From assembly GCA_039738635.1 (NCBI GenBank), contig JBCLLN010000004.1, positions 15,404 through 47,403 of the forward strand: a stretch of 32,000 nt of DNA, read 5' to 3'. The notes below the pieces were generated by a model. That model made no database searches and was not told where the DNA came from. It was given only the letters and a program-made list of their open reading frames with translations. This document shows positions 190 through 22,694 of the stretch, in pieces (the stretch's first letter is position 1; each line of letters begins with the position of its first letter). The DNA is from Candidatus Saccharimonadia bacterium. Lineage in GTDB: Bacteria; Patescibacteriota; Saccharimonadia; CAILAD01; BJGX01. The translations under genes were made by a program, and so were the position numbers.

Positions 190-1131
190 CTATTTAGCAC
201 TAGTTTTAGCAAGCAAGAAGCTCTTAATGGTGCTATAGGCAGTTTCTAGGCTTTTGCTACTGCACTTATCGAGCGTATCTTGACTGGTATGGAAGTACGG
301 ATACTCTAAATCGATTAATAAAATACTAGGCACGCCCACTTTAACTAGCGCGGTGTGGTCGTCCTTGATTTCACTATTAATTTTATTGCTAAAGGCCTTG
401 CCATCTGCCATCTGGCCTATTCTCCACATCATATCTACATCACCTTGAGCGTTTTTTTGTGACAAACCTTCTTTATAGAACCGTAAGTCCTTATCACAGA
501 CTAAATCAGGCACTATCGCTAGCTCGGGCTTTCCGCTAGGGTAGAGGCTGTCTATATTTTGGGCAAAGTAGGTAGAGCCCTTGGCCTGCCAATTATCATA
601 TGGGCCTGGCTCAAACTCCTCTGCATCAAAAAACACCACATCTATGCCTAGCTCATTAAATCTGAAGTCGTTTTTAATATCTTTAGCTAACTCTAAAAGC
701 AATGCCGTGCCAGAGGCAGAGTCATTAGCACCAGGCACAGGCAAGCTAGTATCTTGCTTGTCGTTATCAGCCCTATCCTTACTATCGTAGTGGGTGCCGA
801 GCAAAAACCGCCTTGGGCTGTCTGGATTAATACGACCAATAATATTATTAAGAGTTTTGCCACTAGAATCCACCCATACCTGATTAACGACTTGTATCTG
901 GCTATCTGTGAGGGTCTGGCTAATGTATGCCACTACCTTGCTATGCCCATCTGCGCCAACATACCTGGGGCCAAACTCCAGCTGGTCAGCTATTTTGGCC
1001 ATAATAGCATCGCCTATGGGGTAGTTTTTACTAGATTCCAGATAGCCACGCAATACTATTGCAAATATGACCACCGCCAGCATGGCCAATAATAGTTTGA
1101 TGATAGTTATTTTATTGAGTTTAATATTCAT
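190..1131 (-). CDS. Membrane-anchored M28-family zinc peptidase / glutaminyl-cyclase-like protein
   Basis: ORF 190..1242. Motifs HYDS, GANDSASGTALLLELA and FFDAEE fit the M28 aminopeptidase/QC fold. One N-terminal TM helix. I moved the start to the ATG at 1131 (MNIKLNK...) because the 37 upstream codons read through an intergenic tandem repeat (DFGRSRDFGRS). Confidence 0.75.
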   Translation of the reverse strand: MNIKLNKITIIKLLLAMLAVVIFAIVLRGYLESSKNYPIGDAIMAKIADQLEFGPRYVGADGHSKVVAYISQTLTDSQIQVVNQVWVDSSGKTLNNIIGRINPDSPRRFLLGTHYDSKDRADNDKQDTSLPVPGANDSASGTALLLELAKDIKNDFRFNELGIDVVFFDAEEFEPGPYDNWQAKGSTYFAQNIDSLYPSGKPELAIVPDLVCDKDLRFYKEGLSQKNAQGDVDMMWRIGQMADGKAFSNKINSEIKDDHTALVKVGVPSILLIDLEYPYFHTSQDTLDKCSSKSLETAYSTIKSFLLAKTSAK

Positions 1132-1147
1132 ATAATTATGCCTATTT

Positions 1148-1233
1148 GGCTTGCCAGTCCGAAGCTTTAGCGTAGGATGGCTTGACCGTCCGAAGTCTCT
1201 TGACCGTCCGAAGTCTTGACGTAGGAGGTTGAC
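1148..1233. repeat. Three tandem units of GGCTTG[AC]C[AC]GTCCGAAG followed by GTAGGAGGTTGAC, forming the proximal half of the long intergenic repeat
   Basis: Units at 1148-1164, 1179-1195 and 1199-1215. The same module occurs once each at 8517-8540 and 11196-11232. Confidence 0.8.
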
Positions 1234-1243
1234 GAGATTCATT

Positions 1244-1713: not shown

Positions 1714-4700
1714 ATGAGCGAACAATACCATCCAATACCTAAAGAGGCTCAGCACCATCTGGAGCAAATCCAGCACGATCCAACTCGTGAACATATAGCA
1801 GAGCATATCCAAAAGCTGCATCTTATAAAAAACTTACAGGAACAGCCGCGAACAGATGAAACTGCACAAGAAGTTGAGTTTGCTCCGGCTTTTGCGGGCG
1901 ATAGTGAACGCGTAAAACATCATATGAGTTCTATAGCTGAGCAGGCATCTGCAGCTCACGCTGAATTGTCATCGGGTCAAGACGCAGAGGTAAGCACCTC
2001 TGATATTTGGAGTCGCGTACTTGAGCGTCAGCTCACTTCTGCCACTGAAGCCAAGCAACGAGGAGATAGTGAAGCCGCAACGAGTTCGCTCGTTGATTAC
2101 TTAATCATTACTGGAATAATCTCATCGTCTCGAGGCGAAAGTTATGGCTATGAAAATTCTTCTGAGGCTCAAAAAGAAAAAGTTTCTAGAGTTTTGGACG
2201 AAATAATAGCTCGTGACTTAGCTCTAGAGTTAGTGGAAGCTGCCCATCAAAGCTACGGCCTGGTACATGTTGAAGCAAGTAGGTCTCAGGATTACGAATT
2301 TGATCTTTCTATGATTAAGTCACCTCCAAAAGTAGAGGTAACAAGCATTGCTCACACTATTGAAACGGTAAAACCACAATTAGAAATCATTACCAATAGA
2401 ACAGTTTCGGTAGATCCTGACGACCCTGCATTGGGTGAAACGCTTGTAGCTGAAGCTGTCCAGGAGCGCATCGAACAGCTTTCGCTAGAAGGTGCAGTAG
2501 CTACAGCAAAAGGTGTAGCTACTGCCGAACAATATGATGCAGAGCGTAAGCCTGACACAATAGACAATCTCACAAAACGAGCTCTTGCTGAGTTCTCCGA
2601 ACAGTCATCGGTGCGTCTCGATATGGCAGAACAACTGGTACGATTAAGTGAAGCAAATCCGTCGTTAAGTGACCCTTCAAAATATCAAAGAGAATTTCGG
2701 GCAATTCGTGCTATGAGAATTGTCAACTCTCATTACAGGGGCAACCAGCAAGAAATAGATCATGTAGATCAGGCTCTGGTTGGATTATGGGAGAGGGGCT
2801 TTAAAGACTTAGCTGGGAGGATACTAACTGCTGGTAACGAGATAGAAGAACGAGATGGCTATCCTGGCGGTGCTATCGGGCATATGGTGGGCTCCAAGCC
2901 AGAGCTAATGCAAGAGATACAGGCAGAAGTTCAACGTCGTCAGCAAGAGTGCCGGCAAAAACTAGCAGCCGTTTTAATTCCTCCCAAAGAGGATGCAGGT
3001 CAATCCTCAGGCTATTCTCATGAGCGTTCCGATGGTGAATCCATTATCCATAAAGTTATTGGAACACAAGACCCCGAAAGAGCCACTGAGATTGTGCTTG
3101 CATGGGCAAAGGATAATAACGCCGAAAAGATACTGTCCACACTGCGCCTAATGGATGACGACCCTAATGAAGGTTCTGGGCTTAATCTGATGCTTATACT
3201 CACAGGCAAAGAAAATCCTCTAATAGACTTAGATGAAGTTAGTAAAGTTATGGAGGCCACAACTGACCTTTCTCTACGCCACCATTTTCCAGAAACTACC
3301 ATACGGGATTCTGCACTGCTAGATAATAGCGAAGAGGGAGCAGACTTACGCGCAAGGGTGACAATGCTTCATGACGAATTTCCTTTAGACCTATTTGACA
3401 GCTACTTCATGCCACAAAAAATAAAATTCTTCGAAAGGGTATTCGAAAATAGCGACCCGCAGTTTGTTGATAATATTAAGCGCCTATTGGAAACTCCAGC
3501 CGTCAGTGGATTGCAGTCAGAGACCTTTACGGGGGCAAAGGATGTTATGTTGAAACTGCTGACTGGCGCTGTAGACGCAGAAGACACAGACCAATTCCTA
3601 GAAGAACAAAGAGGTTATTTACAATCACTTGAGTCAATGATGGCTCATCCACACTATGAGAAGCTAAAGCATCCGGATGAAGGCGAACTATATAATCCTT
3701 TCAACAATTTAGTTCTGAACTCAGTAACCACCGCCAGTAATCCAGCTGAAGGGATTAAAAATGTTGAAATGGTTTTTGATACTGATCTTACGAGGTCATT
3801 AAGAGCTCTCTATGAAGTAGCTCCGTCCGAAGCTGTTAGTGGGTTAGTGGCGGAAATCGCTGGGTCTTCAGATATAGCTACCTTAACCCAAGAATGGCAA
3901 GGACTGAGCGAGCAATTGAAGGCTGTGGCAGAACATCCGCTAATGGACATCTTGCGTCCTGGCGGGATGCTTCACAATATGGCTCCTGCAATTCTTAATG
4001 GCATTTTAGCCAACGAAAACAAAGTTGCTTTTTGCGAAAGCGTCTACAACTCCTTCACTAGACCACAACCTTTATGGAAAAGTCTATCTCGATTTACAGA
4101 ACTCCTGGTTGGCGAAAAGGTTGAGGCGCTTGGTGAAAAACAGCAGCATTTAGTTAAGGTTCTGCCATTTATGAGGCTCAGATTAGGAGTTTCACCTGAT
4201 AATGCTGGCCTGGACCAAATTGAAGGCTTCGAGCCCCATTCATTTTCTCAACTTACAGTAGAACAAAAACGTCTGATGACTACAGATCGGCTTGTTGGCT
4301 TATCAGATGAAGAAGTGACTGGGTTAGAAGCACTAACATTCGACAGACTTACCGACCAAGTCAAGCGAGCCTTATTCGCTTTTCAGCTTCAACAGACAGT
4401 CGAACAAAGTCGTGATAGCACCCAGAAAGAACAAGCCGATTCCCGTAATCAACAACTAGCTAAACAGCAAGTAGCAGTTATTCAGGCAGGCGATTTTCTA
4501 CACGGTACATCATTCGATTCTCTAACATCAATACTCCAAGATGGCAATGTGGCTGGTGAAGCACGTCGGGCTGCTTCAAGAGCCGACTCTTATCCCTACA
4601 ATGTTGACTTCGGCGTAATCAACGGAGCCGAGACCATTCAGGAGAAAATTGAAAGCACCATTAGCTTCCGAGGTTATGGTAAAGGTGGCCCTAAGGGTGA

Positions 4701-5700
4701 GGCTGGACAGATTATGCTGGTGTATAAGCGCAATCCCGATAGCTGGATGGCAGGCCAGGAAACCCAACCGGGCGAGCAACACGCCCTAATTTTTGGTGGT
4801 ATACCATCGACTGAAATAAGTGGTATGGTGCTGACTGATCCTTCAGCTACCCTGTCAGCTGTGAGCAGAACGGTAGTTGAAAATGGCTTTTATATACCTT
4901 TATATGACCGCCAAGGTAATATCCTGTTTAGTCCTGACGAATATAACCACATGAGAGACGATCTTAATATGGGTGTACAAATACCACCAGAAAACATTGT
5001 TGACAGTAGCATCAAGGCTGAAGACCAAAGAGGTATTAGTGAGGGTGGTCTTTACTTATTCCCAACAGAATCTGGCCCAGTTCGGTATTATGTTAAATTT
5101 GCCCAAAATCCTGACCATACATGGACTGAATACGCTGCCGATGAACTTTACAGGACGGCTGGTGTGGCAGTTCCTGACACAAAAGTCGTTATGGTGGAAG
5201 GCCGTTTGGGCAGAGCTTCCAGGTGGGTTGAGGAGGGGTCTGAGCTTCCGCCCGCCGAATCATCAACATTAGAAGATGGTGCAGCGATGGATATGTTACT
5301 AGCCAACTGGGATGTAGTCTTTAATTCTGCTAACACAATGACGGTCAATGGGAAAGTACTACGACCTGATTCGGGTAGTGCGCTTGATATTTGGGCAACG
5401 GGCGTTCCTAAATTAGAAGGAACATGGGTAGATGAGGTTGGAGAACTTAACGTGAGCAGTGATAGGACAAAACTATGGGAAGGCATGAGGCAGGAATATC
5501 CTGATTTAACAGACGAACAGCTTAGAACACAGGTAGGGCATATTCAGGAAAGATTAACTGATGATGTTATTGATAAGGTTTTTGATTCCATAAGACGGCC
5601 CCAACAAGCTCGCGATACTCTAAAGGCTACGCTTAAAGCTCGGCGAGATCACATGATTACAAAAGTCTTGGGGGCTGTACCGCCAACAGTGCTGGCATAA
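1714..5700 (+). CDS. Very large (1328 aa) multidomain protein with no signal peptide or TM helix; tentative ART-like and PI3/4-kinase-like C-terminal modules
   Basis: Uninterrupted 3987-nt ORF, with only short antisense shadow ORFs inside it. The N-terminal ~900 aa are acidic and look helical. FLHGTSFDSLTSILQDG starts at H930 (nt 4501). YYVKF has K1128. LLANWDVVFNSAN has D1200/N1204. RPDSGSAL has D1219. Confidence 0.85.
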   Translation: MSEQYHPIPKEAQHHLEQIQHDPTREHIAEHIQKLHLIKNLQEQPRTDETAQEVEFAPAFAGDSERVKHHMSSIAEQASAAHAELSSGQDAEVSTSDIWSRVLERQLTSATEAKQRGDSEAATSSLVDYLIITGIISSSRGESYGYENSSEAQKEKVSRVLDEIIARDLALELVEAAHQSYGLVHVEASRSQDYEFDLSMIKSPPKVEVTSIAHTIETVKPQLEIITNRTVSVDPDDPALGETLVAEAVQERIEQLSLEGAVATAKGVATAEQYDAERKPDTIDNLTKRALAEFSEQSSVRLDMAEQLVRLSEANPSLSDPSKYQREFRAIRAMRIVNSHYRGNQQEIDHVDQALVGLWERGFKDLAGRILTAGNEIEERDGYPGGAIGHMVGSKPELMQEIQAEVQRRQQECRQKLAAVLIPPKEDAGQSSGYSHERSDGESIIHKVIGTQDPERATEIVLAWAKDNNAEKILSTLRLMDDDPNEGSGLNLMLILTGKENPLIDLDEVSKVMEATTDLSLRHHFPETTIRDSALLDNSEEGADLRARVTMLHDEFPLDLFDSYFMPQKIKFFERVFENSDPQFVDNIKRLLETPAVSGLQSETFTGAKDVMLKLLTGAVDAEDTDQFLEEQRGYLQSLESMMAHPHYEKLKHPDEGELYNPFNNLVLNSVTTASNPAEGIKNVEMVFDTDLTRSLRALYEVAPSEAVSGLVAEIAGSSDIATLTQEWQGLSEQLKAVAEHPLMDILRPGGMLHNMAPAILNGILANENKVAFCESVYNSFTRPQPLWKSLSRFTELLVGEKVEALGEKQQHLVKVLPFMRLRLGVSPDNAGLDQIEGFEPHSFSQLTVEQKRLMTTDRLVGLSDEEVTGLEALTFDRLTDQVKRALFAFQLQQTVEQSRDSTQKEQADSRNQQLAKQQVAVIQAGDFLHGTSFDSLTSILQDGNVAGEARRAASRADSYPYNVDFGVINGAETIQEKIESTISFRGYGKGGPKGEAGQIMLVYKRNPDSWMAGQETQPGEQHALIFGGIPSTEISGMVLTDPSATLSAVSRTVVENGFYIPLYDRQGNILFSPDEYNHMRDDLNMGVQIPPENIVDSSIKAEDQRGISEGGLYLFPTESGPVRYYVKFAQNPDHTWTEYAADELYRTAGVAVPDTKVVMVEGRLGRASRWVEEGSELPPAESSTLEDGAAMDMLLANWDVVFNSANTMTVNGKVLRPDSGSALDIWATGVPKLEGTWVDEVGELNVSSDRTKLWEGMRQEYPDLTDEQLRTQVGHIQERLTDDVIDKVFDSIRRPQQARDTLKATLKARRDHMITKVLGAVPPTVLA

Positions 5701-5808: not shown

Positions 5809-5816
5809 TGTATAAT
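5809..5816 (+). promoter_or_regulatory. Candidate extended -10 promoter element TGTATAAT for the downstream hydrolase gene
   Basis: TGnTATAAT-type element lies 32 nt upstream of ATG 5848. AAAAGG lies 9 nt before the ATG. A similar TGTATACT at 1681-1688 precedes the giant gene. Confidence 0.3.
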
Positions 5817-5847
5817 GTTAGGTGTAATATGCATAAAAGGAATAAAC

Positions 5848-7212
5848 ATGCCTAAATCAAAAAAAATACAGCGTAACTCTAAGAAGAATCAATCAACCCT
5901 TTTGATAACTAAGCTTAAAAACCTGTCTAAGCTTAGTAGAGGTTTACTATTTGTAGCAATATTTGCGGTCGTTGGTGGTTCCGTAATATTGCTGGCGCAA
6001 GCCCTTAATAACAATAAGTTGCAGCTTTCGTCAGCCAACGCCGCATTATATTTTCACTTAATAAAAGACACCCCCGAATGGGAGAAAAACAGCCTTCCCC
6101 TTATAGGTAAACCACGATTAGTAATAACACGCGCGCAGGGTACAGAGGATGCAGAGCGATTTGCCATAAAAAAAATTCATGAGACCGGCGGTCTGGCTTA
6201 CCGCTATTTGCAATATTTCTGGTTCCCGGACAACAAAGCCGATCCGGATACTGGCCTCAACATCTCACAAAACCCCGACTGGATATATTGCAGGCAAGGC
6301 AACACTCCATTGTTTGGCGTCAGATTTGAAGGAGTCAAGTCGTACTTTCTTGACTTAAACGAACGAGCTGCCCGTGATAATATGATTGCTTTCTATAAAA
6401 AAATTAAAGATTGGGGTTACGACGGCGTATTTGTTGATATCGGACGCGGGGCCAGAAGTGGCAGAACCGACTATCCATTGGCAGACCAACTTATACCCGG
6501 CGAACCCTCAACCTGCACTAAAGATCCAATCGTTGCTAACCGTAGTTTTGCCGATAGCTATATAGAAACAATTACCCAGGCCAAAGCTTTGGGATTAAAA
6601 ACAATTCTTAACTATGACCGGGCTCATGTTCCAGGCAAAAAATTACCTGCTAATTGGTATAATTATTTAGACTGGACACTTGACGAAAGCGTTAATAACA
6701 GCAATATCCCCTGGCAAGAAATATACGACAGCAACAGATACGCCGAGCTTGATGGTCAAGGCAAAACCATTCAGCTAATTAAAGAAGACATAAAAGATGC
6801 CAATGGCAAGCCAATTACAAATAAAGACGACGTTTATTTTCGCTCTAGCCGGGCTCGATTATTTAGTTCTCCAATAGCCGTTAATTCGCTAAATTCCAGA
6901 CTTTACCCAGAACTTACTAGCGCCACACTCAATGGCCCGTTTGTGGCCGGACCTTTTACGATTAGTTGTGATGACACTGCTACAGGCCAATGCTTATGGG
7001 CCAGACGTTACTCGGGCGGATTGGTTATTGTTAATAACACTAACCAAAATAAGTCGACTAAAAATATCTGGCTTGGCACACAAAGCTGCCGAACAGTGAA
7101 AAACCTCTATAGCGGACAGCTCCTAGACGGTGGCGCTTGCATTACATCGCTTGATTTGTCTATTCCCGCTAAATCCGGTCGCATTTTCCTATATAATGTC
7201 CTAAATTTATGA
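5848..7212 (+). CDS. Secreted or membrane-anchored putative glycoside hydrolase, GH114-like TIM barrel (endo-alpha-1,4-polygalactosaminidase-like)
   Basis: ORF 5815..7212, with ATG 5848 preferred (MPKSKK..., purine-rich RBS). N-terminal TM/signal anchor LLFVAIFAVVGGSVILLA. YFLDLNERAARDNMIAFYKKIKDWGYDGVFVDIGRG resembles the GH114/GHL motif ...GFDGVFLD.... Confidence 0.4.
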   Translation: MPKSKKIQRNSKKNQSTLLITKLKNLSKLSRGLLFVAIFAVVGGSVILLAQALNNNKLQLSSANAALYFHLIKDTPEWEKNSLPLIGKPRLVITRAQGTEDAERFAIKKIHETGGLAYRYLQYFWFPDNKADPDTGLNISQNPDWIYCRQGNTPLFGVRFEGVKSYFLDLNERAARDNMIAFYKKIKDWGYDGVFVDIGRGARSGRTDYPLADQLIPGEPSTCTKDPIVANRSFADSYIETITQAKALGLKTILNYDRAHVPGKKLPANWYNYLDWTLDESVNNSNIPWQEIYDSNRYAELDGQGKTIQLIKEDIKDANGKPITNKDDVYFRSSRARLFSSPIAVNSLNSRLYPELTSATLNGPFVAGPFTISCDDTATGQCLWARRYSGGLVIVNNTNQNKSTKNIWLGTQSCRTVKNLYSGQLLDGGACITSLDLSIPAKSGRIFLYNVLNL

Positions 7213-8516: not shown

Positions 8517-8629
8517 GGCTTGTCAGTCCGAAGCCTTGACTAGAAACACAAAGAAATAATGGATGAGCTAAAATATGAACTCGCAAATATGTAAAAAGTC
8601 TATCTGGAAAAGGCCAGGCCTTTTAAACT
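8517..8629. repeat. Intergenic repeat copy 1 (long form, most diverged)
   Basis: GGCTTGTCAGTCCGAAGCCTTGAC-TAGAAACACAAAG-AAATA-ATGGATGAGCTAAAATATGAACTCGCAAATATGTAA...GGAAAAGGCCAGGCCTTTTAAAC. Hairpin AAAAGGCC/GGCCTTTT at 8608-8624. It ends 45 nt downstream of the stop of minus-strand gene 8674..9024. Confidence 0.85.
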
Positions 8630-8673
8630 TCCTCTGGATCAATCACTTATCAGCTTATGCTTTAACTTTTTGT

Positions 8674-9108: not shown

Positions 9109-9125
9109 CCAGGGTGTCTCCCTGG
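9109..9125. repeat. Small hairpin motif CCAGGGTGTCTCCCTGG (inverted copy of 1244-1259)
   Basis: Exact reverse complement of the 1244-1259 motif plus one base. It directly abuts repeat copy 2. Confidence 0.7.
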
Positions 9126-9128
9126 CAT

Positions 9129-9212
9129 GATAATGGATGAACTAAAGTATAAACTAGCAAATCTGTAAAACCGCCATCTGGAAAAGGCCAGGCCTTTTAA
9201 ATCTTTTAAATC
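9129..9212. repeat. Intergenic repeat copy 2 (distal half only)
   Basis: ATAATGGATGAACTAAAGTATAAACTAGCAAATCTGTAAAACCGCCATCTGGAAAAGGCCAGGCCTTTTAAATC. Hairpin at 9182-9198. It ends 42 nt downstream of the stop of 9254..10984. Confidence 0.9.
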
Positions 9213-9253: not shown

Positions 9254-10984
9254 TTAAAACCACCTATTACTGCTTAGAATTCGCATTAAAGTAGGTAGCC
9301 TAATCTCGAACACCTGATTATCGGTTACTGGTAAATCTATTATCATTCTTGGGTCATTTGGTAGCCTATAGTAGTTTACTTCTGTATTCTGGCTTACATT
9401 TATGACTTCTGAATATTGATTATAGCTAATTGGCAACTTTACAGCGCTAGGTTCTTTACAGCTAATATTGAGTCTTAGCAATAGCGTATCAGTAGACGAC
9501 CTAGCATTGTCTATTATCTGACATTTACCTTGCCAGCCATTAGACTTTTCGTAGTCCAAATACAAATTCTCATACTGGAACCATGTCGTTCTGGCGTTAA
9601 CTTGCTTACCATTTTCATACACTCTAGGCAAAAACTCACCATGATAAAGTATCGCGCTACCAAATCCTCTATATCTATCAGTATCTGGTGCACTGCTCAG
9701 CTGTATATCTGACACAAAAGCAATACTAGGCTTATGCCAGACTGGTGCCGCTGCAACGAATGTAGTAACCCAAATAACAAGAAAAATATACAAAGTTGAT
9801 CGGCTTTTTACTCTAGATAGTAAATACGCTAACGAGATAATTGAAAAGGGCACCATAAATGTCATTAGCCGAAAAGGAAACTGAAGATATTCCAGTGGCT
9901 TTATTAAGTGATAAATGGGTAGTGATATTTTTAACTGCAGTACAAAGAATACAATTAACATAGATGCCAGGAATATTACTACCTTTTTACTAAAGAATTG
10001 CGCCCTACTCATAAACATATGCTTCTTTTTCTTAAATACAAAGTAGAGAAGCAAACAGGCTATCGCCGACAACCAAATACCAATGTCAAGCTGAATGTTT
10101 GCTGCTGGAGTAGCGTCATGTAAAGAAAATTTGGGTAAAATATTCCTGACCAAAGGTACAAAATTATTACTAGCTAAAAAGCTTCCCTCTAGAATCTTGC
10201 TAGGATCATAATCAGCTAAAAATAAATACTCAGCAAGCAATAGTGGAGCAAGCAACAACAGTAAAGATACGCCCGACAAGATTACTGGCTTAATTGTTCG
10301 TCGCCACGACTGGTAATCACCTATAGAATATATTAGGTATGCGCCTAACAACGGCACCAGAGACATTAGCCCAATTACATTGTGGCAGTAAACAGTAACC
10401 AGCAAAATCACAACTATACTATAAGAAAACTTTTTATCAATCAACAGCTTAAGACACCACCAAATCACCCAAGGAATCATCATCATTGCCACAAATTCAG
10501 AAAATGCACCACGCCATAACCAATTTATAAAGCTATAGTTAGCCAACAGTAGTAGCTGCGAGCTAGCTAAAATAATACTCTTTTTGTCGGTAAGCTTTTG
10601 CAAACAAAAACGCATGCCATATACCCCCACAGCCATAAAACTTGCTAATCCTACGAATAAAGCTAGCTTCATGCTGCCAAAAAGTATGAAAATAATTGAA
10701 GTAACATAGTAGAAAGCTCTGTGATAAAAAAGCAACATTGGGGTTCCGTAGCCAAAAGCGTCGCCAGATGACCAAACAGGAATTAAATCACCGTACCTAA
10801 TATGGTCAGCGTAAGCTTGGATTTTGTAAGTCACCACTAGCCCATCGTCAGTATTCTCTGGCCATCCCGAATATGCTATTACCCAAAAAAGACAAAAACA
10901 GATAGTTACCGCAGTAACCAATGCAAAAATTGCATTAAACCTACGCCTTAGTAAGTACTGCATTCGCAAGCCATAAATCATCAT
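9254..10984 (-). CDS. Polytopic integral membrane protein (576 aa); a GT-C-type glycosyltransferase (ArnT/PMT/YfhO-like) is a guess
   Basis: More than 10 hydrophobic helices followed by a soluble C-terminal domain. The start overlaps the stop of the peptidase fragment (ATGA). Confidence 0.55.
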   Translation of the reverse strand: MMIYGLRMQYLLRRRFNAIFALVTAVTICFCLFWVIAYSGWPENTDDGLVVTYKIQAYADHIRYGDLIPVWSSGDAFGYGTPMLLFYHRAFYYVTSIIFILFGSMKLALFVGLASFMAVGVYGMRFCLQKLTDKKSIILASSQLLLLANYSFINWLWRGAFSEFVAMMMIPWVIWWCLKLLIDKKFSYSIVVILLVTVYCHNVIGLMSLVPLLGAYLIYSIGDYQSWRRTIKPVILSGVSLLLLLAPLLLAEYLFLADYDPSKILEGSFLASNNFVPLVRNILPKFSLHDATPAANIQLDIGIWLSAIACLLLYFVFKKKKHMFMSRAQFFSKKVVIFLASMLIVFFVLQLKISLPIYHLIKPLEYLQFPFRLMTFMVPFSIISLAYLLSRVKSRSTLYIFLVIWVTTFVAAAPVWHKPSIAFVSDIQLSSAPDTDRYRGFGSAILYHGEFLPRVYENGKQVNARTTWFQYENLYLDYEKSNGWQGKCQIIDNARSSTDTLLLRLNISCKEPSAVKLPISYNQYSEVINVSQNTEVNYYRLPNDPRMIIDLPVTDNQVFEIRLPTLMRILSSNRWF

Positions 10985-11178
10985 CTTGCTGCCCTAAAAG
11001 TGCCAACATACTTGGGGGAAAACTCCAGCTGGGCAGCTATTTTGGCCATAATAGCACTGCCTATAGGGTAATTTTTACTAGATTCCAGATAGCCACGCAA
11101 TACTATAACAAATATGACCACCACCAGAGCAGCCAATAGCATTTTTATGATAATTATTTTATTGAGTTTCATATTCAT
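10981..11178 (-). pseudogene. Truncated paralog of the 5' end (TM anchor, ~65 codons) of the M28 peptidase gene
   Basis: MNMKLNKIIIIKMLLAALVVVIFVIVLRGYLESSKNYPIGSAIMAKIAAQLEFSPKYVG aligns with MNIKLNKITIIKLLLAMLAVVIFAIVLRGYLESSKNYPIGDAIMAKIADQLEFGPRYVG of 190..1131. The catalytic domain is absent. Confidence 0.75.
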
Positions 11179-11195
11179 ATAATTATACCCTACTA

Positions 11196-11322
11196 GGCTT
11201 GCCAGTCCGAAGTCTTGACGAAGGAGGTTGACTAGAAACACAAAGCAATCATTAATGAGCTAAAGTATAAACTAGCAAATCTGTAAAACCGCCATCTGGA
11301 AAAGGCCAGACCTTTTAAATCT
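11196..11322. repeat. Intergenic repeat copy 3 (full-length form)
   Basis: GGCTTGCCAGTCCGAAGTCTTGACGAAGGAGGTTGAC-TAGAAACACAAAG-...ATTAATGAGCTAAAGTATAAACTAGCAAATCTGTAAAACCGCCATCTGGAAAAGGCCAGACCTTTTAAATC. The mini-ORF ATG is lost (ATT AAT) and the hairpin is imperfect. It ends 19 nt downstream of the stop of 11341..12204. Confidence 0.9.
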
Positions 11323-11340
11323 AAGTCTTGATTCGGCTTC

Positions 11341-12245: not shown

Positions 12246-12289
12246 GGATGAGGGCATCCATCTGGAAAAGGCCAGGCCTTTTAAACTTC
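12246..12289. repeat. Intergenic repeat copy 4 (short form with internal deletion)
   Basis: GGATGAGGGCATCCATCTGGAAAAGGCCAGGCCTTTTAAACTTC keeps the GGATGAG... start and the CCATCTGG + hairpin end. It ends 3 nt downstream of the doc stop. Confidence 0.8.
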
Positions 12290-12291
12290 AG

Positions 12292-12675
12292 TTAATTGCT
12301 ATGTGCTTCAAGCCATGACGCGATTTCAGAAATATCTAGGTGGTCTGTTGAAACCTTAACGGTGAAATTCTCTAACTCCTTGGGGTTAGCAATTATATTG
12401 ATACCGTTCCTAGATAAAAAAATACTACAAATAGTTAAGGCGGTCCGTTTGTTACCATCAATAAACGGGTGATCCCCAATCAAATTCCTTAAATACACCG
12501 CTGCTTTTTCATATACTGTTACGTATTGTTGCTTTCCTAAGACCTCTTGTTTTGGTGCTTCAACAACTGATTTTAGGCGGCCTTCGTCGCGAACACCATG
12601 TGAGCCACCAAAATCCTCAACAACCTGGAAGTGCAACCGTAATACCTCTTCTATATCCAAGAACCTGACAGTCAT
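12292..12675 (-). CDS. doc: Doc (death-on-curing) Fic-family toxin
   Basis: Fic/Doc motif HPFIDGNKRTAL (HxFx[DN]GNKR). 127 aa. ATGA overlap with the upstream antitoxin. Confidence 0.9.
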   Translation of the reverse strand: MTVRFLDIEEVLRLHFQVVEDFGGSHGVRDEGRLKSVVEAPKQEVLGKQQYVTVYEKAAVYLRNLIGDHPFIDGNKRTALTICSIFLSRNGINIIANPKELENFTVKVSTDHLDISEIASWLEAHSN

Positions 12676-12890
12676 CTACTAGCTAAATTTTTAAGAGTTT
12701 GGCCGTATTTCTCTACAAATTTATCGTATTCTCGTAAAAGTTTTGTGTGGCTTTCGGGTTCATTCACAAGTTCAACTCTTATTTTTAGTGTGTCTCCACG
12801 CTTAGCGCCTAGTCGAGTAAGGTCTTTTTTGGACAATGTTACTCCTTCACTAGAACCAATTTGAATAAGTTTTTGGGTAGTTTCAATCAT
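12672..12890 (-). CDS. AbrB/MazE/SpoVT-fold antitoxin partner of Doc (72 aa)
   Basis: MIETTQKLIQIGSSEGVTLSKKDLTRLGAKRGDTLKIRVEL is a swapped-hairpin AbrB-like pattern. I moved the start from 13043 to ATG 12890, which sits 7 nt after a consensus -10 element. Confidence 0.75.
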   Translation of the reverse strand: MIETTQKLIQIGSSEGVTLSKKDLTRLGAKRGDTLKIRVELVNEPESHTKLLREYDKFVEKYGQTLKNLASR

Positions 12891-12897
12891 ATAATAC

Positions 12898-12925
12898 ATT
12901 ATAAGCATATTATAATATTTGTCAA
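12898..12925 (-). promoter_or_regulatory. Near-consensus sigma70-type promoter for the TA operon, implying a leaderless mRNA
   Basis: The minus strand reads TTGACA-16 nt-TATAAT-7 nt-ATG. The spacer contains the 12-nt palindrome ATATTATAATAT, a candidate operator. Confidence 0.6.
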
Positions 12926-13128
12926 CCCTCTCCCTTCCTCTTCTTGGTATAGTGGAAAGGTGGACGGGTCTAAAAATCATCAATTGGCGGAGAGGTATCC
13001 TGCGTTTATAGAACTTCGGACTACCATTTTCTCCTCGTTCCAACGTACATACTTCACACTTTTTTAAGAGGAGTAGCTCTAGAGAATAATCCGTTAGCGT
13101 GAAGCAGCTACTGACTCAACAAACCAGA

Positions 13129-13210
13129 AATAATGGATGAGCTAAAGTATAAACTAGCAAATCTGTAAAACCGCCATCTGGAAAAGGCCAGGCCTTTGAA
13201 ATCTTTTAAA
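13129..13210. repeat. Intergenic repeat copy 5 (distal half)
   Basis: AATAATGGATGAGCTAAAGTATAAACTAGCAAATCTGTAAAACCGCCATCTGGAAAAGGCCAGGCCTTTGAAATCTTTTAAA. It ends 7 nt downstream of the stop of 13217..13930. Confidence 0.9.
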
Positions 13211-13216
13211 TAATGG

Positions 13217-14315: not shown

Positions 14316-14591
14316 TCAGGATTTTGATCGGCTTAACTTTTTGAGGAGCTCAACATCACCAACAATTAATGCCTTTTTCTTAGCTTTTGACCAGCCTTTA
14401 AGCTGTTTTTCCCGCTTTGCAGCATCAACTCGTTTAGTAAACTTTTCAGAATACACTATCTGAACTTCTCCATAGCGTTTAGTATAAGACGATTGATGTT
14501 TTTGATGCTGCAAAAGCCTAGTTTCTAAGTTGGTGGTCAAACCAACGTAGAAAAAGGCATTATCACATTCTAAAATATATATGTTATACAT
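14316..14591 (-). CDS. GIY-YIG nuclease-family protein (UPF0213-like, 91 aa)
   Basis: YILECDNAFFYVGLTTNLETRLLQH matches the GIY-(x10)-YVG...R..H pattern. The track ORF 14316..14699 reads through the tRNA, so I moved the start to ATG 14591. Confidence 0.8.
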   Translation of the reverse strand: MYNIYILECDNAFFYVGLTTNLETRLLQHQKHQSSYTKRYGEVQIVYSEKFTKRVDAAKREKQLKGWSKAKKKALIVGDVELLKKLSRSKS

Positions 14592-14615
14592 AGCAATCCT
14601 GAGCCTGTCGAAGGA

Positions 14616-14705
14616 TGGCGGAGAGGGAGGGATTCGAACCCTCGATGGAGTTGCCCCCATACTACTTTTCGAGAGTAGCGCCTTCAACCACTCGGCCACC
14701 TCTCC
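14616..14705 (-). tRNA. tRNA-Ser (anticodon CGA), 90 nt with encoded CCA
   Basis: The minus strand reads GGAGAGGTGGCCGAGTGGTTGAAGGCGCTACTCTCGAAAAGTAGTATGGGGGCAACTCCATCGAGGGTTCGAATCCCTCCCTCTCCGCCA. 7-bp acceptor stem GGAGAGG/CCTCTCC. Anticodon stem CTACT/AGTAG with loop CTCGAAA. Long variable arm. T-arm GAGGG-TTCGAAT-CCCTC. Confidence 0.92.
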
Positions 14706-14921: not shown

Positions 14922-16292
14922 ATGACAAATAAATCCCAGCACGCTAGCAAGATCTCCCAGATACTGGCTGAATTCAAATCAATTAAAAATTCTAAGCTCA
15001 AAATATCTACCAATAAAACAACCACTAATCTGTTCCGCGGTAGAAAGCAAGGCACTACCCAACGGCTTAGTATGCGCGAGCTCAATGATGTCGTGAGTAT
15101 CGATGCCAAGTCCAAGACAGCGGTAGTAGAGGGGATGTGTAGCTATGAACGGCTGCTACAGCAGACCCTAGCGCTGGGGCTAATGCCCGCCGTAGTGCCC
15201 CAGCTTAAAACCATCACCCTAGGTGGTGCGGTAACGGGTATTGGTATTGAATCGAGCTCATTTAAGTACGGCTTCCCCCACGAGACAGTTACCCAATTAG
15301 AAATCCTAACAGGACTCGGCAAAGTCATACAGGCCACTCCCACTAATGAGCATCAGGACTTATTCTATGGCTTCCCCAACAGCTATGGAACGCTAGGCTA
15401 TGCTCTATCACTAACCATTAAGCTCGTGCCTACTAAAAGCTTTGTAAAGCTAAAATACATCAAATTCACTACCCCCCGCGAGTACTTTAAGGCCCTCAAG
15501 CTAGCCTGCGATAAATCTAGCTGGGAAGGGGAGAGGCTAGACTTTATAGATGGAGTGATATTTGGGCCAGAAGAAATGTATCTGGTACTAGCTACCATGG
15601 TAGCGAATGCTCCATACACCAGCGATTACACCTATAAAAACATATTCTATCGTTCTATCCAAACGCGTAGCGAGGATTACCTGACCATCAAGGACTATCT
15701 TTGGCGTTGGGATACCGACTGGTTCTGGTGCAGTAAAAGCCTAGGGGCTCAAAACCCCATAATTCGTCGAATCTATGGAGCCAAGCGCTTACATTCGGGG
15801 TTTTATATGAAATTATTTGGGCTAGAAACCAAGTACCACCCTAGAGCCAAGCTCGATAAGCTATTACGCAAGCCCTTACAAGAACCCATTGTTCAAGATG
15901 TTACGGTGCCAATACAATCAGCCGAAGCGTTTTTGAAATTCTTTAATAGCAATATTGGTATTGAGCCCATCTGGAATTGCCCAGTGCGTCAGCTAGATGG
16001 CTCCAAGGTCTGGACTCTCTTTGAGATGAAGCCAAAACAACTCTATCTTAATTTTGGTTTCTGGGATAGCGCCGATGCTAATCCTCACCAGCCCGATGGC
16101 TACCACAACCGTCAGATAGAATCAAAGATCATTAAGCTCAAAGGCCGAAAGTCGTTATATTCGGACTCATTTTATAACGAGGATGCTTTCTGGACTATTT
16201 ATAACCAAGTAGGCTATGATATATTAAAGGCAAAATACGATCCCAGCGCGCGCTTTAAGGATTTATATCAGAAAACAGTATTAAAAGGATAA
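14922..16292 (+). CDS. FAD-binding oxidoreductase (FAD_binding_4 / DHCR24-like; BfaA-like)
   Basis: ITLGGAVTGIGIESSSFKYGFPHE is the PCMH-type FAD-binding signature seen in Delta24-sterol-reductase-like enzymes. 456 aa. It lies 20 nt upstream of the CFA-synthase-like gene. Confidence 0.75.
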   Translation: MTNKSQHASKISQILAEFKSIKNSKLKISTNKTTTNLFRGRKQGTTQRLSMRELNDVVSIDAKSKTAVVEGMCSYERLLQQTLALGLMPAVVPQLKTITLGGAVTGIGIESSSFKYGFPHETVTQLEILTGLGKVIQATPTNEHQDLFYGFPNSYGTLGYALSLTIKLVPTKSFVKLKYIKFTTPREYFKALKLACDKSSWEGERLDFIDGVIFGPEEMYLVLATMVANAPYTSDYTYKNIFYRSIQTRSEDYLTIKDYLWRWDTDWFWCSKSLGAQNPIIRRIYGAKRLHSGFYMKLFGLETKYHPRAKLDKLLRKPLQEPIVQDVTVPIQSAEAFLKFFNSNIGIEPIWNCPVRQLDGSKVWTLFEMKPKQLYLNFGFWDSADANPHQPDGYHNRQIESKIIKLKGRKSLYSDSFYNEDAFWTIYNQVGYDILKAKYDPSARFKDLYQKTVLKG

Positions 16293-16312
16293 TAATTAGA
16301 GAGGATAAGATT

Positions 16313-17455
16313 ATGAGCCAAATCCCAGACACTAAAGAGCTAGCCATCAAACTACTAGCACTAGCGGATATCAAAGTAGGAGGCAGCAGACCCCAGGATA
16401 TTACTATTAACAATGAAGAGTTCCTCAATATCGCTATCACCAAAGGTTCAATAGGAATAGGAGAGGCCTACATGAACGGGGACTGGAAAGCCAATAAGCT
16501 TGATGCGTTTTTTTACAATGTCTTGCGGGCTGGGCTTGATCAAAAGGTTCAGGGTAACCTTAAGGCTCAAATCATTATTAAGGGATTATCAGCTAGACTA
16601 CTTAACGCCCAAATGGGTAAGCGCGCCTATAAAAATGCCCAGGCCCACTATGATATTGGTAATGACCTTTACGGGCCAATGCTTGGTAAGACTATGGCCT
16701 ATACCTGTGCTTATTGGGCCTGGGGAGCCAAAGACCTTGACCAAGCCCAGACCGATAAATTTGACTTGGTATGCAAAAAGCTTGGCCTCAAGCCGGGTAT
16801 GAAAGTTATGGACCCAGGCTGTGGGTGGGGTGGGCTAGCTGTGCATATGGCCAAACACTATGGCTGTGAGGTGGTTTGTTTTACTCCTGCCGTTGAGCAA
16901 ATAAGCTACATCAAGAGCCACACTGGTAAGCTCAAAATTAAAGCCCTCACTACTACCTGGCAGGACTACGCCACTACCACCAAATTTGATCGCATCGCAT
17001 CTATTGGTATGATGGAGCATGTTGGACCCAAGAATTATCGTGGATACCTAGCTAAGATGCAGTCTCTACTTAAAGAAGATGGCCTAATGCTTTTACACAC
17101 CATAGGTGGTAATCAATCCATCCTTCATGGTGACCCGTGGTTTGATCGCTATATTTTCCCGGGCGCAGTATTGCCTAGCGTCAAACAAATAGGAGCAGCT
17201 TTTGAGGGAATATTCACACTTGAGGACTGGCATAGTATGGGCATTAACTACGACAAAACCCTGCTGGCCTGGTATGCGAATTTCAAAAAATCCTACCCCT
17301 CTCTTGACCATAGCAAATACGACAAAAAATTCTACCTAATGTGGGAATACTACCTGCTCTCCTCCGCCGGTGCTTTCAGAGCGCGCAGTAATCAGCTGTG
17401 GCAGGTAGTGCTGTCTAAAAACGGTGTTGAGGGCGGTTATAAATCTATACGCTAA
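16313..17455 (+). CDS. cfa: Cyclopropane-fatty-acyl-phospholipid synthase family SAM methyltransferase (BfaB/Cfa-like)
   Basis: HYDIGNDLY, VMDPGCGWGGLAVHMAKHYGCEV, IASIGMMEHVG and YLLSSAGAFR are classical CFA/mycolic acid cyclopropane synthase motifs. GAGAGGA RBS. Confidence 0.85.
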   Translation: MSQIPDTKELAIKLLALADIKVGGSRPQDITINNEEFLNIAITKGSIGIGEAYMNGDWKANKLDAFFYNVLRAGLDQKVQGNLKAQIIIKGLSARLLNAQMGKRAYKNAQAHYDIGNDLYGPMLGKTMAYTCAYWAWGAKDLDQAQTDKFDLVCKKLGLKPGMKVMDPGCGWGGLAVHMAKHYGCEVVCFTPAVEQISYIKSHTGKLKIKALTTTWQDYATTTKFDRIASIGMMEHVGPKNYRGYLAKMQSLLKEDGLMLLHTIGGNQSILHGDPWFDRYIFPGAVLPSVKQIGAAFEGIFTLEDWHSMGINYDKTLLAWYANFKKSYPSLDHSKYDKKFYLMWEYYLLSSAGAFRARSNQLWQVVLSKNGVEGGYKSIR

Positions 17456-21648: not shown

Positions 21649-21993
21649 CTAGGCGGTAATGGACACATTTACAAAGCTAGCAATGGCGAAAGCGCTTAGT
21701 GCAACTATAATCCCTACTATGGCATATAGAATAGTGTTCTTGGCTGTCGTGATCCTCTGCTCGTTACCCCCGGATGTTATATACATTATTCCACCCGCCA
21801 CTAAGGCAACCACGCTTAGCGCACCCGCTACAAATAACAAAGTACTAACTGTATTGGCTATTAGCTCAGCTGCAGTTGGGCCAGTACTAACAGCAGGCGG
21901 GAGAGTGGCATTATTAATAACCACAACAGCTAACGCCTTTTGTGGAAGTGCGCTTAATGCTATTGCTGTAAGTAGTGTGTATAGTTTCTTCAT
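21649..21993 (-). CDS. VirB2/TrbC-like T4SS pilin paralog 3 (114 aa)
   Basis: Signal peptide ...PQKALA. Loop GGIMYITSGGNEQRITTAKNTILYAIVG. ATGA overlap with the upstream gene. Confidence 0.7.
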   Translation of the reverse strand: MKKLYTLLTAIALSALPQKALAVVVINNATLPPAVSTGPTAAELIANTVSTLLFVAGALSVVALVAGGIMYITSGGNEQRITTAKNTILYAIVGIIVALSAFAIASFVNVSITA

Positions 21994-22694
21994 TTTTGTA
22001 ATTGAGTTTGTATAAAAAATAGTATACCATAAGCCGAGATAGAAATAACTAGCCCAGCTAGCGCGTAGATAATAGTCTTCTTGGCTTTTTTAATGCCTTC
22101 GCCCCCGCCAGAAGTGATGTACTGAATGCCACCTACTATTACAAATATAACTGCTAGTGCGCCACCCAAGAACAACGCAATGCCTATAACATTGTTTATT
22201 AATGTTGGTATGCCAGCGATTCCAAATGAGGCCTCGTTGACTGATACGTTTCGGGTAAATAGCTGCTTAGTGTTAACATCTTCAAATGCCAGATTAACCA
22301 AGAGCATTATAGCCCTAAATGATATTAGCAACACCAGGCCTGTCACTGCCTTAAAGATATTTTCTTTGCCCTTTTTTACTTGCTCTTCTTTGCCACCAGA
22401 CATAGTTATCTGAACAGCCGATACAATAACGATTAGCACTAACACAGCCCCAAAAATACTTGTTAATATTGCGACTACAAAATTTACTAGGGGCTGAGCT
22501 GTACTGGCGGGATCATATGTCGAACTGACGGGATCACCTAGAATCTCGTTACAAATTCTCTGGGGTATGACTATGCAATCAAAGCCTGCATGACTTCCAG
22601 CATTAGCCTTGATGGGTATTAATGCCACCACTCCAGCACCTATTACAACCACCAGCATCAGGCTAGCAAATACTAATTTAGCTTTTATATACAT
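21990..22694 (-). CDS. Fused tandem double pilin-domain protein (234 aa)
   Basis: Two pilin-like modules in one ORF: ...SAVQITMSGGKEEQVKKGKENIFKAVTGLVLL... and ...GGIQYITSGGGEGIKKAKKTIIYALAGLVI.... Each loop is flanked by TM helices. Confidence 0.65.
   Translation of the reverse strand: MYIKAKLVFASLMLVVVIGAGVVALIPIKANAGSHAGFDCIVIPQRICNEILGDPVSSTYDPASTAQPLVNFVVAILTSIFGAVLVLIVIVSAVQITMSGGKEEQVKKGKENIFKAVTGLVLLISFRAIMLLVNLAFEDVNTKQLFTRNVSVNEASFGIAGIPTLINNVIGIALFLGGALAVIFVIVGGIQYITSGGGEGIKKAKKTIIYALAGLVISISAYGILFFIQTQLQK

Follow-up and report, generated by a model that had tools for sequence, protein, structure and literature searches.

The locus and its longest gene

We describe here a gene from a 32,000-nucleotide (nt) stretch of contig JBCLLN010000004.1 of a Candidatus Saccharimonadia bacterium, a stretch referred to throughout as the window; residue and nucleotide numbers below refer to the 1328-amino-acid (aa) product of this gene and to the window. 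The gene is a complete open reading frame (ORF) on the plus strand (1714..5700, ATG to TAA) encoding an acidic protein without transmembrane segment or signal peptide, the conserved C-terminal part of which joins an uncatalogued domain, probably of ADP-ribosyltransferase (ART) fold, to a predicted protein-kinase-like domain of the HipA/CtkA type. It is the longest complete ORF of the window (the runner-up encodes 610 aa), as an earlier note on this DNA had said, and the motif strings quoted in that note (FLHGTSFDSLTSILQDGNVAG with H930, GEQHALIFGG, YYVKF with K1128, DMLLANWDVVFNSAN, and RPDSGSAL with D1219) all lie at the residues given for them.

The isoelectric point (pI) is 4.79 in both the N-terminal 880 and the C-terminal 449 residues, in agreement with the acidic character previously ascribed to the first ~900 residues. 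Averaged over 19 residues at a time, Kyte-Doolittle hydropathy nowhere exceeded a mean of 1.2 along the protein; a transmembrane helix or a hydrophobic (classical) signal peptide is therefore not predicted, which bears out the earlier description. Five full-length homologs with 55-78% identity were found in metagenomes, so the reading frame is not a chance ORF. Searches of Pfam, NCBIfam and PDB sequences with the whole protein returned nothing significant, and a six-sequence profile of the C-terminus likewise gave no significant match in curated libraries. A promoter and terminator scan produced output no better than that from shuffled sequence. Short tandem-like direct repeats (TTGAAAGAAAAGAT...) lie at 1535-1636, ~80-180 nt upstream of the start codon.

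A conserved C-terminal unit behind a variable N-terminus

Searched exhaustively with HMMER, a set of 1.84 billion cluster representatives yielded 3570 proteins that matched a profile of aa 880-1328 at E ≤ 1e-3, of which 122 reached E ≤ 1e-30. The pattern of matches divides the last 449 residues into module 1 (M1; aa ~880-1092) and module 2 (aa ~1093-1328), which occur jointly or separately in relatives. Both modules, in the same order, are present in ~100 diverged representatives, and M1 occurs without the kinase in 21; a homolog search seeded with the M1 alignment alone found one protein only. Residue conservation is given below for 98 diverged two-module relatives unless the wider family is named. 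Within these relatives H930, K1128, E1139, Y1146, D1193, N1198, D1200, D1219 and G1221 are 97-100% conserved, a set that includes four of the residues singled out in the earlier note (H930, K1128, D1200 and D1219); a fifth, N1204, is not conserved.

Conservation extends upstream of M1 into a pre-domain (aa ~735-879; 3916..4350, plus strand; HPLMD...PLWK...) common to distant two-module relatives, with column conservation of 0.3-0.4 and occupancy of 0.8-0.9; tblastn matches in homologous loci L006, L007, L010, L011, L014 and L018 begin at aa ~707-751 (~655 in L010). The N-terminal region (aa 1-734; 1714..3915, plus strand) is acidic, presumed helical and poorly conserved (column conservation 0.05-0.28). 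It can be aligned only with close Saccharibacteria-type relatives, and tblastn with aa 1-880 covered this part in L001, L003 and L004 only. No Pfam or NCBIfam match was found for aa 1-734, and profile matches to designed helical bundles and ARM repeats are at most consistent with the helical nature proposed for the first ~900 residues. From the conservation mapping and the tblastn results with the first 880 residues, we take aa ~735-1328 as the conserved unit and the N-terminus as the variable part.

Module 2 as a HipA/CtkA-type kinase

Module 2 (aa 1093-1328; 4990..5697, plus strand) was assigned from an AlphaFold2 model, Foldseek searches, Pfam matches in relatives and residue conservation. 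The model of aa 880-1328, built from 66 diverse sequences, was confident (predicted local distance difference test [pLDDT] 94.3, predicted template-modeling score [pTM] 0.91); a run on the six close homologs alone gave a pLDDT of 48.5 and was unusable. The pTM indicates that M1 is rigidly packed on the kinase, and in the model the last 449 residues are one rigid two-domain body. Foldseek against the PDB ranked seven CtkA chains first (best 3akl_C; E = 1.3e-5 to 8e-5, probability 1.00, TM-score 0.47-0.53 normalized to CtkA), followed by HipA of Escherichia coli and Shewanella (4pu3, 2wiu, 4pu4, 3fbr, 4pu5; probability 0.95-1.0), Lpg2370 (7wcf, 7vkc, 7vkb; probability 0.95-1.0), and then Rio1 and generic protein kinases. 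Entry 7VKB is Lpg2370, a HipT-type kinase of Legionella (PMC9758233). The predicted structure thus makes module 2 a member of the HipA/CtkA branch of protein-kinase-like folds. Modeling and structure search, which the earlier note had proposed as a check, upheld its suggestion of a kinase-like fold and replaced the type II phosphatidylinositol 4-kinase (PI4K) layout that it had recognized with HipA and CtkA as the nearest structures.

The spacing of D-x4-N-W and D-x-G does resemble the catalytic and activation motifs of type II PI4K. Membership of the type II PI4K or PI3_PI4_kinase (PF00454) families was nonetheless rejected, there being no match to PF00454 in Pfam and no PI3/4-kinase named among the top 50 PDB matches, and the label "PI3/4-kinase-like" that the module had been given does not hold. 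At lax thresholds, 13 of 27 diverse module-2 sequences matched HipA_C (PF07804) and 11 of 27 matched HipA_2 (PF20613); the HipA_C matches had a best E of 6e-5 and lay mostly below the cut-off, and a five-copy relative (P0108) alone passed gathering cut-offs, for HipA_C, HipA_2 and APH. The window protein itself matched 0 Pfam families, hence neither HipA_C nor HipA_2 above gathering score. Searched against PDB sequences, the module-2 profile gave a weak match to CtkA (E = 0.15) spanning the N-lobe and the C-terminal helices, and hhalign of the kinase profile with a single HipA sequence was weak (8.6%) and confined to the Lys/Glu region, where K1128 and E1139 fell at the HipA K181 region.

Along the plus strand, module 2 comprises a Gly-rich loop (G1107-G1112), the ATP-binding lysine K1128 (5095-5097), E1139 (5128-5130), a catalytic loop from D1193 (5290-5292) to N1198 (5305-5307) followed by W1199 and D1200, a Mg loop in which R1217 precedes D1219 (5368-5370), x and G1221, and a C-terminal helical bundle with R1300 and R1310. 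K1128, E1139, Y1146, D1193, D1200, R1217, D1219 and G1221 are conserved in 100% of the 98 relatives and N1198 in 97%. When the comparison is widened to the whole family, phage and Streptomyces copies among them, D1193 and N1198 stay invariant and K1128, E1139 and D1219 exceed 90%; D1200 is replaced in some copies, and N1204 is invariant among the six close homologs only. Because the D1193/N1198 pair is invariant across the wider family, we place the catalytic loop at D1193-x4-N1198, a spacing equal to that of D309...N314 in HipA. The catalytic residues named earlier were therefore correct for K1128 and D1219 and misplaced for the loop, which had been put at D1200/N1204. By alignment the predicted catalytic set is complete: K1128 and E1139 would hold ATP, D1193 would act as the base, and N1198 and D1219 would bind Mg2+.

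Among characterized kinases, two known systems come closest to the protein. HipA of E. coli and HipT/Lpg2370 of Legionella, the Ser/Thr kinase toxins of the HipBA and HipBST toxin-antitoxin systems, have the same protein-kinase-like fold (Foldseek probability 0.96-1.0), and HipA shares with module 2 the ATP-binding Lys (K181, corresponding to K1128), the D-x4-N loop and the downstream Mg-binding Asp. Unlike HipA, the 1328-aa protein has no Pfam match (HipA_C and HipA_2 are sub-threshold in about half of the family), and it lacks the HipA-coupled N-terminal domain, carrying instead M1 and an ~880-aa N-terminal extension; the module-2 family also has traits of its own, an N-W-D sequence after the catalytic Asn, and a Mg loop of the form R-x-D-x-G. 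Unlike HipBA and HipBST, it has no HipB or HipS partner and no toxin-antitoxin operon at 19 loci. The best structural match of the model, CtkA (JHP0940; 3AKJ, 3AKK, 3AKL), is the proinflammatory cell-translocating Ser/Thr kinase of Helicobacter pylori, like the window protein a HipA-like kinase that stands alone without an antitoxin. CtkA acts on another cell. It differs from the window protein in sequence (13-15% identity), in its size of 325 aa and in being a single-domain protein without an ART-like domain, HD partner or long N-terminus. The kinase family described in polyvalent proteins lacks the C-terminal subdomain (PMC5512222) and was rejected as the identity of module 2, being a different family.

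Module 1 as a candidate ART-fold domain related to KptA/Tpt1

M1 (aa 880-1092; 4351..4989, plus strand) is an uncatalogued alpha/beta domain with a helical hairpin at its start, on which S899-R900 and R911-N912 are located. Its core (aa 923-1044; 4480-4845, plus strand), the part aligned with the Tpt1 NAD lobe, contains the invariant H930 (4501-4503, plus strand). Conserved positions are S899, R900, R911, N912, H930 (100%), L941 (93%), G944 (98%), E949, D958, P961, D965, R1006, H1023 (92%) and E1034 (87%). Pfam searches with 36 M1 sequences at E ≤ 10 gave no ART family (including PF01885, PF00644, PF03496 and PF01129) and no recurrent match, and an M1 profile found nothing among PDB sequences or in PHROGs.

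Profile-profile alignment with hhalign gave a signal that grew as the template was deepened: 19% (E = 0.0012) against E. coli KptA alone, 34% (E = 4.3e-4) against seven KptA homologs, 66.8% (E = 5.3e-5) for full M1 against a 127-sequence KptA/Tpt1 profile, and 88.7% (E = 2.6e-6) for the M1 core against the KptA NAD lobe, with 85 colinear columns covering 85 of the 90 lobe positions; the signal was usable only with the 127-sequence profile and the trimmed core. Controls stayed low, with 1.1% for reversed M1, 0.2-10% for ten block-shuffled M1 alignments, and 0.1-0.9% for unrelated domains (Tpt1 or M1 against the kinase module). In all runs the H-G-[ST] motif aligned with KptA LYHGT...I...G; in the core alignment DFLHGTSFDSLTSILQDGNVAGE was paired with the KptA stretch, and further strands were paired as NVDF/YVHL, QIMLVYKR/VILTVKA and QHALIF/NGVWL. 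The M1 core is in this alignment colinear with the whole NAD lobe of KptA/Tpt1 (PF01885), that is, with the H-G-T strand, the L..I...G helix and four more strands. As an independent line, when the model was searched against BFVD with Foldseek, the sole named non-kinase match was S5WKF0, a 121-aa "putative RNA 2'-phosphotransferase" of Pseudomonas phage PaBG (probability 0.95, E = 0.013, TM-score 0.46).

KptA is an enzyme of the ART superfamily in which a phosphate is the nucleophile (PMC9503650), and its phosphate-binding tetrad (R21, H22, R69 and R125 in KptA numbering) is invariant in a seven-sequence Tpt1 alignment. Unlike KptA, M1 has no PF01885 match, its R-H-R-R tetrad is absent or not conserved, and the RNA lobe is mostly lacking; it has a conserved set of its own (N912, E949, D958, D965, R1006 and H1023) and is fused to a kinase and/or HD domain. 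Because the tetrad is lost and the winged-helix lobe is partial, M1 is not a Tpt1 ortholog and at best represents a new clade of the ART fold that has an active-site set to itself. Taken with these limits, M1 quite probably has an ART fold with the NAD lobe of KptA/Tpt1 as its nearest known relative, and H930 would, by alignment, correspond to the invariant His in the NAD-binding strand H-G-[ST]. A putative catalytic use of NAD+ is suggested more tentatively, at somewhat under an even chance. The ART-like module proposed in the earlier note is therefore retained at moderate strength on the core alignment and the BFVD match, as a domain that no curated model matches and from which the Tpt1 catalytic residues are gone. 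At the level of the superfamily, both domain guesses of that note were right.

Sister architectures in bacteria and phages

A C-terminal tail of ~210 aa follows the kinase in 22 two-module representatives, and a homologous tail stands directly after M1 in all 10 of the 10 M1-only proteins that have a tail; Pfam calls it an HD phosphohydrolase in five proteins. One giant protein combines M1 with an APH-type kinase and a methyltransferase. M1 is thus the constant element, with the kinase and/or HD as partners, which argues for a shared phospho-substrate and against M1 as a mere kinase accessory.

The kinase module has a wider distribution in large proteins. In giant proteins of Streptomyces, often in 2-5 copies, it adjoins genuine R-S-E ART domains (PF03496, PF01129), and one of these (WP_277725858.1, P0112, 2491 aa) is annotated "ADP-ribosyltransferase domain-containing protein". 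Large phage proteins carry it too, some under the annotation ADP-ribosyltransferase (Aeromonas phage ST4 gp109, Pseudomonas phages Jeremy and Dolphis, Yersinia phage fHe-Yen8-01) and others, from Gordonia phages, as hypothetical proteins (e.g. Sixama gp73); a Pfam scan of one ART-annotated phage protein found no domain. These polyvalent-like phage and Streptomyces proteins carry the same kinase module as the window protein (24-36% identity, E = 1e-20 to 1e-38), and those of Streptomyces differ in that their ART is of the R-S-E exotoxin type and not M1. A tblastn search of 50,697 phage records found module 2 only and M1 never. The pairing of ART and kinase to which the earlier note had drawn attention has parallels in the Streptomyces giants and in ART-annotated phage proteins. 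In the literature searched, no KptA-like ART joined to a HipA-like kinase or to an HD domain was described.

Giant relatives of 3416 aa (P0108), 2491 aa (P0112), 4361 aa (P0124) and 3758 aa (P0131) were also noted. They combine 2-5 kinase modules with R-S-E ARTs, or M1 with an APH kinase, methyltransferase or HD; P0124 and P0131 carry M1, with or without kinase and HD. Such multidomain relatives resemble polyvalent or polymorphic effector proteins.

Taxonomic distribution and genomic context

Taxonomic counts were made on GTDB contigs (one genome per species) scanned with an alignment of intermediate diversity; the same scan with patterns from close homologs found no loci. Two-module loci were found in Candidatus Saccharibacteria/Saccharimonadales (4) and other Patescibacteria (4, including Uhrbacteria, Beckwithbacteria and Peribacteria), in Omnitrophota, in five "uncultured Gammaproteobacteria" metagenome-assembled genomes, four of them of low guanine-plus-cytosine (GC) content (0.355-0.387), and in one Planctomycetia bin, one "archaeon" bin and one "bacterium" bin. 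The two-module fusion is concentrated mainly in bacteria that have small genomes and depend on a host. By itself, the kinase module reaches much further (Streptomyces, Dehalococcoidia, Gastranaerophilales and others).

The GC content of the window is 42%. Upstream of the 1328-aa gene and divergent from it is an M28 peptidase gene (190-1242, minus strand), the 5' end of which forms one arm of a direct repeat bracketing a ~10-kb segment (955..1237, minus strand). The other arm (11002..11236, minus strand) is a truncated copy of that 5' end within an 86-aa ORF (10981-11241), the product of which matches residues 1-95 of the M28 protein; positions 955-1142 and 11002-11189, 10,047 nt apart, are 88% identical. 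GC drops to 0.36-0.39 at 7-11 kb, within the bracketed region. The repeat reported in the earlier note is real; the possibility that its arms are the ends of a mobile element was rejected, as they are the 5' end of the M28 gene and a partial second copy of it. Downstream, 115 nt 3' of the 1328-aa gene, a 465-aa ORF (5815-7212, plus strand) encodes a basic protein (pI 9.4) with one N-terminal transmembrane segment (aa ~40-60); it has no family match and is not kept beside homologs of the 1328-aa gene. No terminator-like site was found between the two genes by the scan, which performed no better than on shuffled sequence.

A type IV secretion system (T4SS)-like cluster of the Patescibacteria/monoderm type is present on the same contig, as had been claimed, at 21.6-29.5 kb and ~16 kb from the 1328-aa gene. 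It contains a tandem pair of T4SS_pilin genes (21649-21993 and 21990-22694, minus strand), PrgI (25962-26786) and a VirB4/TraG P-loop ATPase (27647-29479), with several family-less ORFs in between. The patescibacterial T4SS is essential for epibiotic growth, and the study reporting this names no substrates or translocation signal (bioRxiv 10.1101/2025.01.22.634366). The features of the window, together with the surroundings of the closest homologs, suggest a Saccharibacteria-like source.

Other features of the window include an intergenic repeat family of 82 nt (79-100% identity) at 8556-8637, 9130-9211, 11248-11329 and 13130-13211, with a partial copy at 12257-12289. The palindrome AAAAGGCCAGGCCTTTT is present in every copy, and the genes flanking each copy are on the minus strand; the repeat may be similar to repetitive extragenic palindromes or may be a terminator/promoter cassette. 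An inverted repeat of 21 nt (95% complementary) joins the start of the M28 gene (1239-1259) with a site abutting one 82-nt copy (9110-9130). A Fic/DOC-family gene (12292-12675, minus strand; E = 1.8e-17) overlaps by 4 nt an upstream ORF of 123 aa without family match (12672-13043, minus strand), and the pair looks like a toxin-antitoxin module. An ORF with a GIY-YIG nuclease domain (14316-14699, minus strand) overlaps tRNA-Ser(CGA) (14616-14705) on the same strand, which may reflect a mis-called ORF start or a homing-type nuclease beside a tRNA. Finally, a FAD_binding_4 oxidoreductase gene followed by one for a methyltransferase similar to cyclopropane-fatty-acyl-phospholipid synthase (CMAS, E = 4e-74) occupies 14922-17455 (plus strand), a lipid-modifying pair in an apparently reduced genome.

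Proposed role and alternative explanations

The explanation that we prefer, and regard as somewhat likelier than an even bet, is that the product is a large, acidic, multi-domain enzyme synthesized in the cytoplasm, in which an ART-like domain and a HipA/CtkA-type kinase form a unit that would act on the bacterial host of the epibiont. Action on another cell is favored because the fusion is enriched in host-dependent lineages and because phages use the kinase module. The kinase would phosphorylate a target which, by the precedent of HipA, may be a Ser or Thr residue of a protein involved in translation, for example an aminoacyl-tRNA synthetase; HipA-family kinases target the aminoacyl-tRNA synthetases of the producer itself (PMC9758233). 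M1 would bind NAD+ through H930 and work on the same substrate, by analogy with KptA perhaps on the phosphate installed by the kinase, and the HD domain of the sister proteins would hydrolyze the phospho-intermediate or the product. The position of HD after the kinase, or in its place, suggests that the three domains handle one phospho-substrate. The long variable N-terminus would provide targeting, delivery or auto-inhibition. Both activities, their coupling, the target and any export are matters that we infer, and an effector or toxin role is plausible on the same footing.

Several observations weigh against the proposed host-directed enzyme. The 1328-aa protein has neither a secretion signal nor a known trafficking domain, and no curated model in Pfam, NCBIfam, PHROGs or PDB sequences recognizes M1 or the kinase domain in it. 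The ART assignment draws on one trimmed profile-profile alignment and one weak Foldseek match (E = 0.013); the winged-helix lobe of KptA is aligned with M1 in part only and weakly, the R-H pair is missing, the position equivalent to R125 is variable so that the tetrad is not kept, and the canonical catalytic Glu of M1 is uncertain (H1023 at 92% and E1034 at 87% conservation). No T4SS genes lie within ±10 kb of L001 or L003, and the neighbors at two homolog loci are housekeeping genes, unlike those of the window. When 19 loci were compared, no neighboring gene family recurred and there was no conserved immunity, antitoxin or chaperone gene; the protein therefore appears to have no immunity or antitoxin partner. 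A kinase toxic to its own cell would be expected to have such a partner, unless its activity were kept in check by the N-terminus or by M1. The effector or toxin function that the earlier note put forward accordingly stays a candidate one, given the missing trafficking signal, the lack of a conserved neighbor and the housekeeping surroundings of relatives, and the check for an immunity gene in relatives that it had proposed found none conserved across the 19 loci. The polymorphic-toxin-like layout that it had also suggested was rejected, as the pattern of a conserved C-terminus behind a variable N-terminus is the reverse of that organization, and neither a trafficking domain nor a conserved neighbor or immunity gene accompanies it.

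Among alternatives, the one to which we give most weight, while still judging it unlikely, is a cytoplasmic HipA-like regulator of the cell's own growth or dormancy that is not exported, M1 being a non-catalytic pseudo-ART that docks the substrate or restrains the kinase. The self-directed targets of HipA-family kinases (PMC9758233), the housekeeping and partly syntenic contexts of some loci, the absence of a secretion signal, the rigid packing of M1 on the kinase (pTM 0.91) and the missing Tpt1 catalytic residues all speak for it. The shared flanking housekeeping synteny of L003 and L009 suggests vertical inheritance there. Set against these are the occurrence of M1 with HD only and without a kinase, so that it is not simply a kinase accessory, the invariant polar set of M1 (N912, H930, E949, D958 and D965), which is typical of an active site, the want of a HipB- or HipS-type partner, and the enrichment of the family in host-dependent lineages.

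We think it a good deal less probable that the protein is an RNA or nucleotide end-processing enzyme, in which the kinase would phosphorylate a nucleic-acid end or a small molecule, the KptA-like domain would ADP-ribosylate or remove the phosphate, and HD would hydrolyze a cyclic or ADP-ribose phosphate product. That the nearest relative of M1 is KptA/Tpt1, an RNA 2'-phosphate-directed ART with products processed by phosphoesterases (PMC9503650), fits this explanation, as do the recurrence of an HD phosphohydrolase as third domain and the matches of some kinase-module relatives to the small-molecule kinase family APH. However, the best structural neighbors are the protein Ser/Thr kinases CtkA, HipA and Lpg2370, M1 aligns weakly with only a part of the RNA-binding winged-helix lobe and lacks the phosphate-binding tetrad of Tpt1, and no RNA ligase or 2H gene is nearby in the window.

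It is highly improbable that the gene is cargo, now domesticated or decaying, that came with a phage or conjugative element, of the "polyvalent protein" type, and sits in a ~10-kb island with no specific role in the bacterium. The kinase module is found in large phage and Streptomyces giant proteins, the giants P0124 (4361 aa) and P0131 (3758 aa) carry M1, the gene lies between 88%-identical direct repeats with lower GC nearby, and the capture of polyvalent proteins by host genomes is documented (PMC5512222); yet the ORF is intact, five homologs in different chromosomal contexts retain 55-78% identity, no phage or conjugation gene adjoins it in the window, L001 or L003, and M1 was never found in the 50,697 phage records in which module 2 was. 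A lipid (PI3/PI4) kinase acting on membrane phosphoinositides, for which the motif spacing noted above, a moumouvirus "phosphoinositide 3-kinase" at BFVD rank 28 (E = 6.9e-3) and the mutual structural similarity of CtkA, HipA and the PI kinase MavQ (bioRxiv 10.1101/2022.07.12.499685) could be cited, is scarcely credible, since the 50 best PDB matches name no PI3/4-kinase, no member scanned has a Pfam PI3_PI4_kinase match, and the likely targets are bacteria, which are without phosphoinositides.

Implications

An extension of the host-directed reading, offered as speculation and improbable in its full form, is that M1-kinase(-HD) proteins are bifunctional effectors that epibiotic Patescibacteria and other host-dependent bacteria deliver into their bacterial hosts, possibly by the T4SS, and in which the HipA-type kinase would phosphorylate a target and the KptA-like ART would cap or process the same phosphate with NAD+. 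If true, such a two-step "phospho-ADP-ribosylation" would be a chemistry so far unreported for proteins. Both kinds of enzyme, HipA-type kinases and KptA-type ARTs, are already known; what is new is an M1 family absent from the curated libraries, the HipA-like kinase and/or HD phosphohydrolase that obligatorily accompanies it, a combination not found in the literature searched, and the concentration of the fusion in Saccharibacteria and other Patescibacteria. As the T4SS is essential for life on the host and the study cited above names no protein delivered by it, the family is a concrete candidate for host manipulation by ultra-small bacteria, and it may show phosphorylation and NAD-dependent chemistry to be coupled in a new way. 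Were the protein instead an internal regulator, the HipA family would still come to reach beyond toxin-antitoxin modules.

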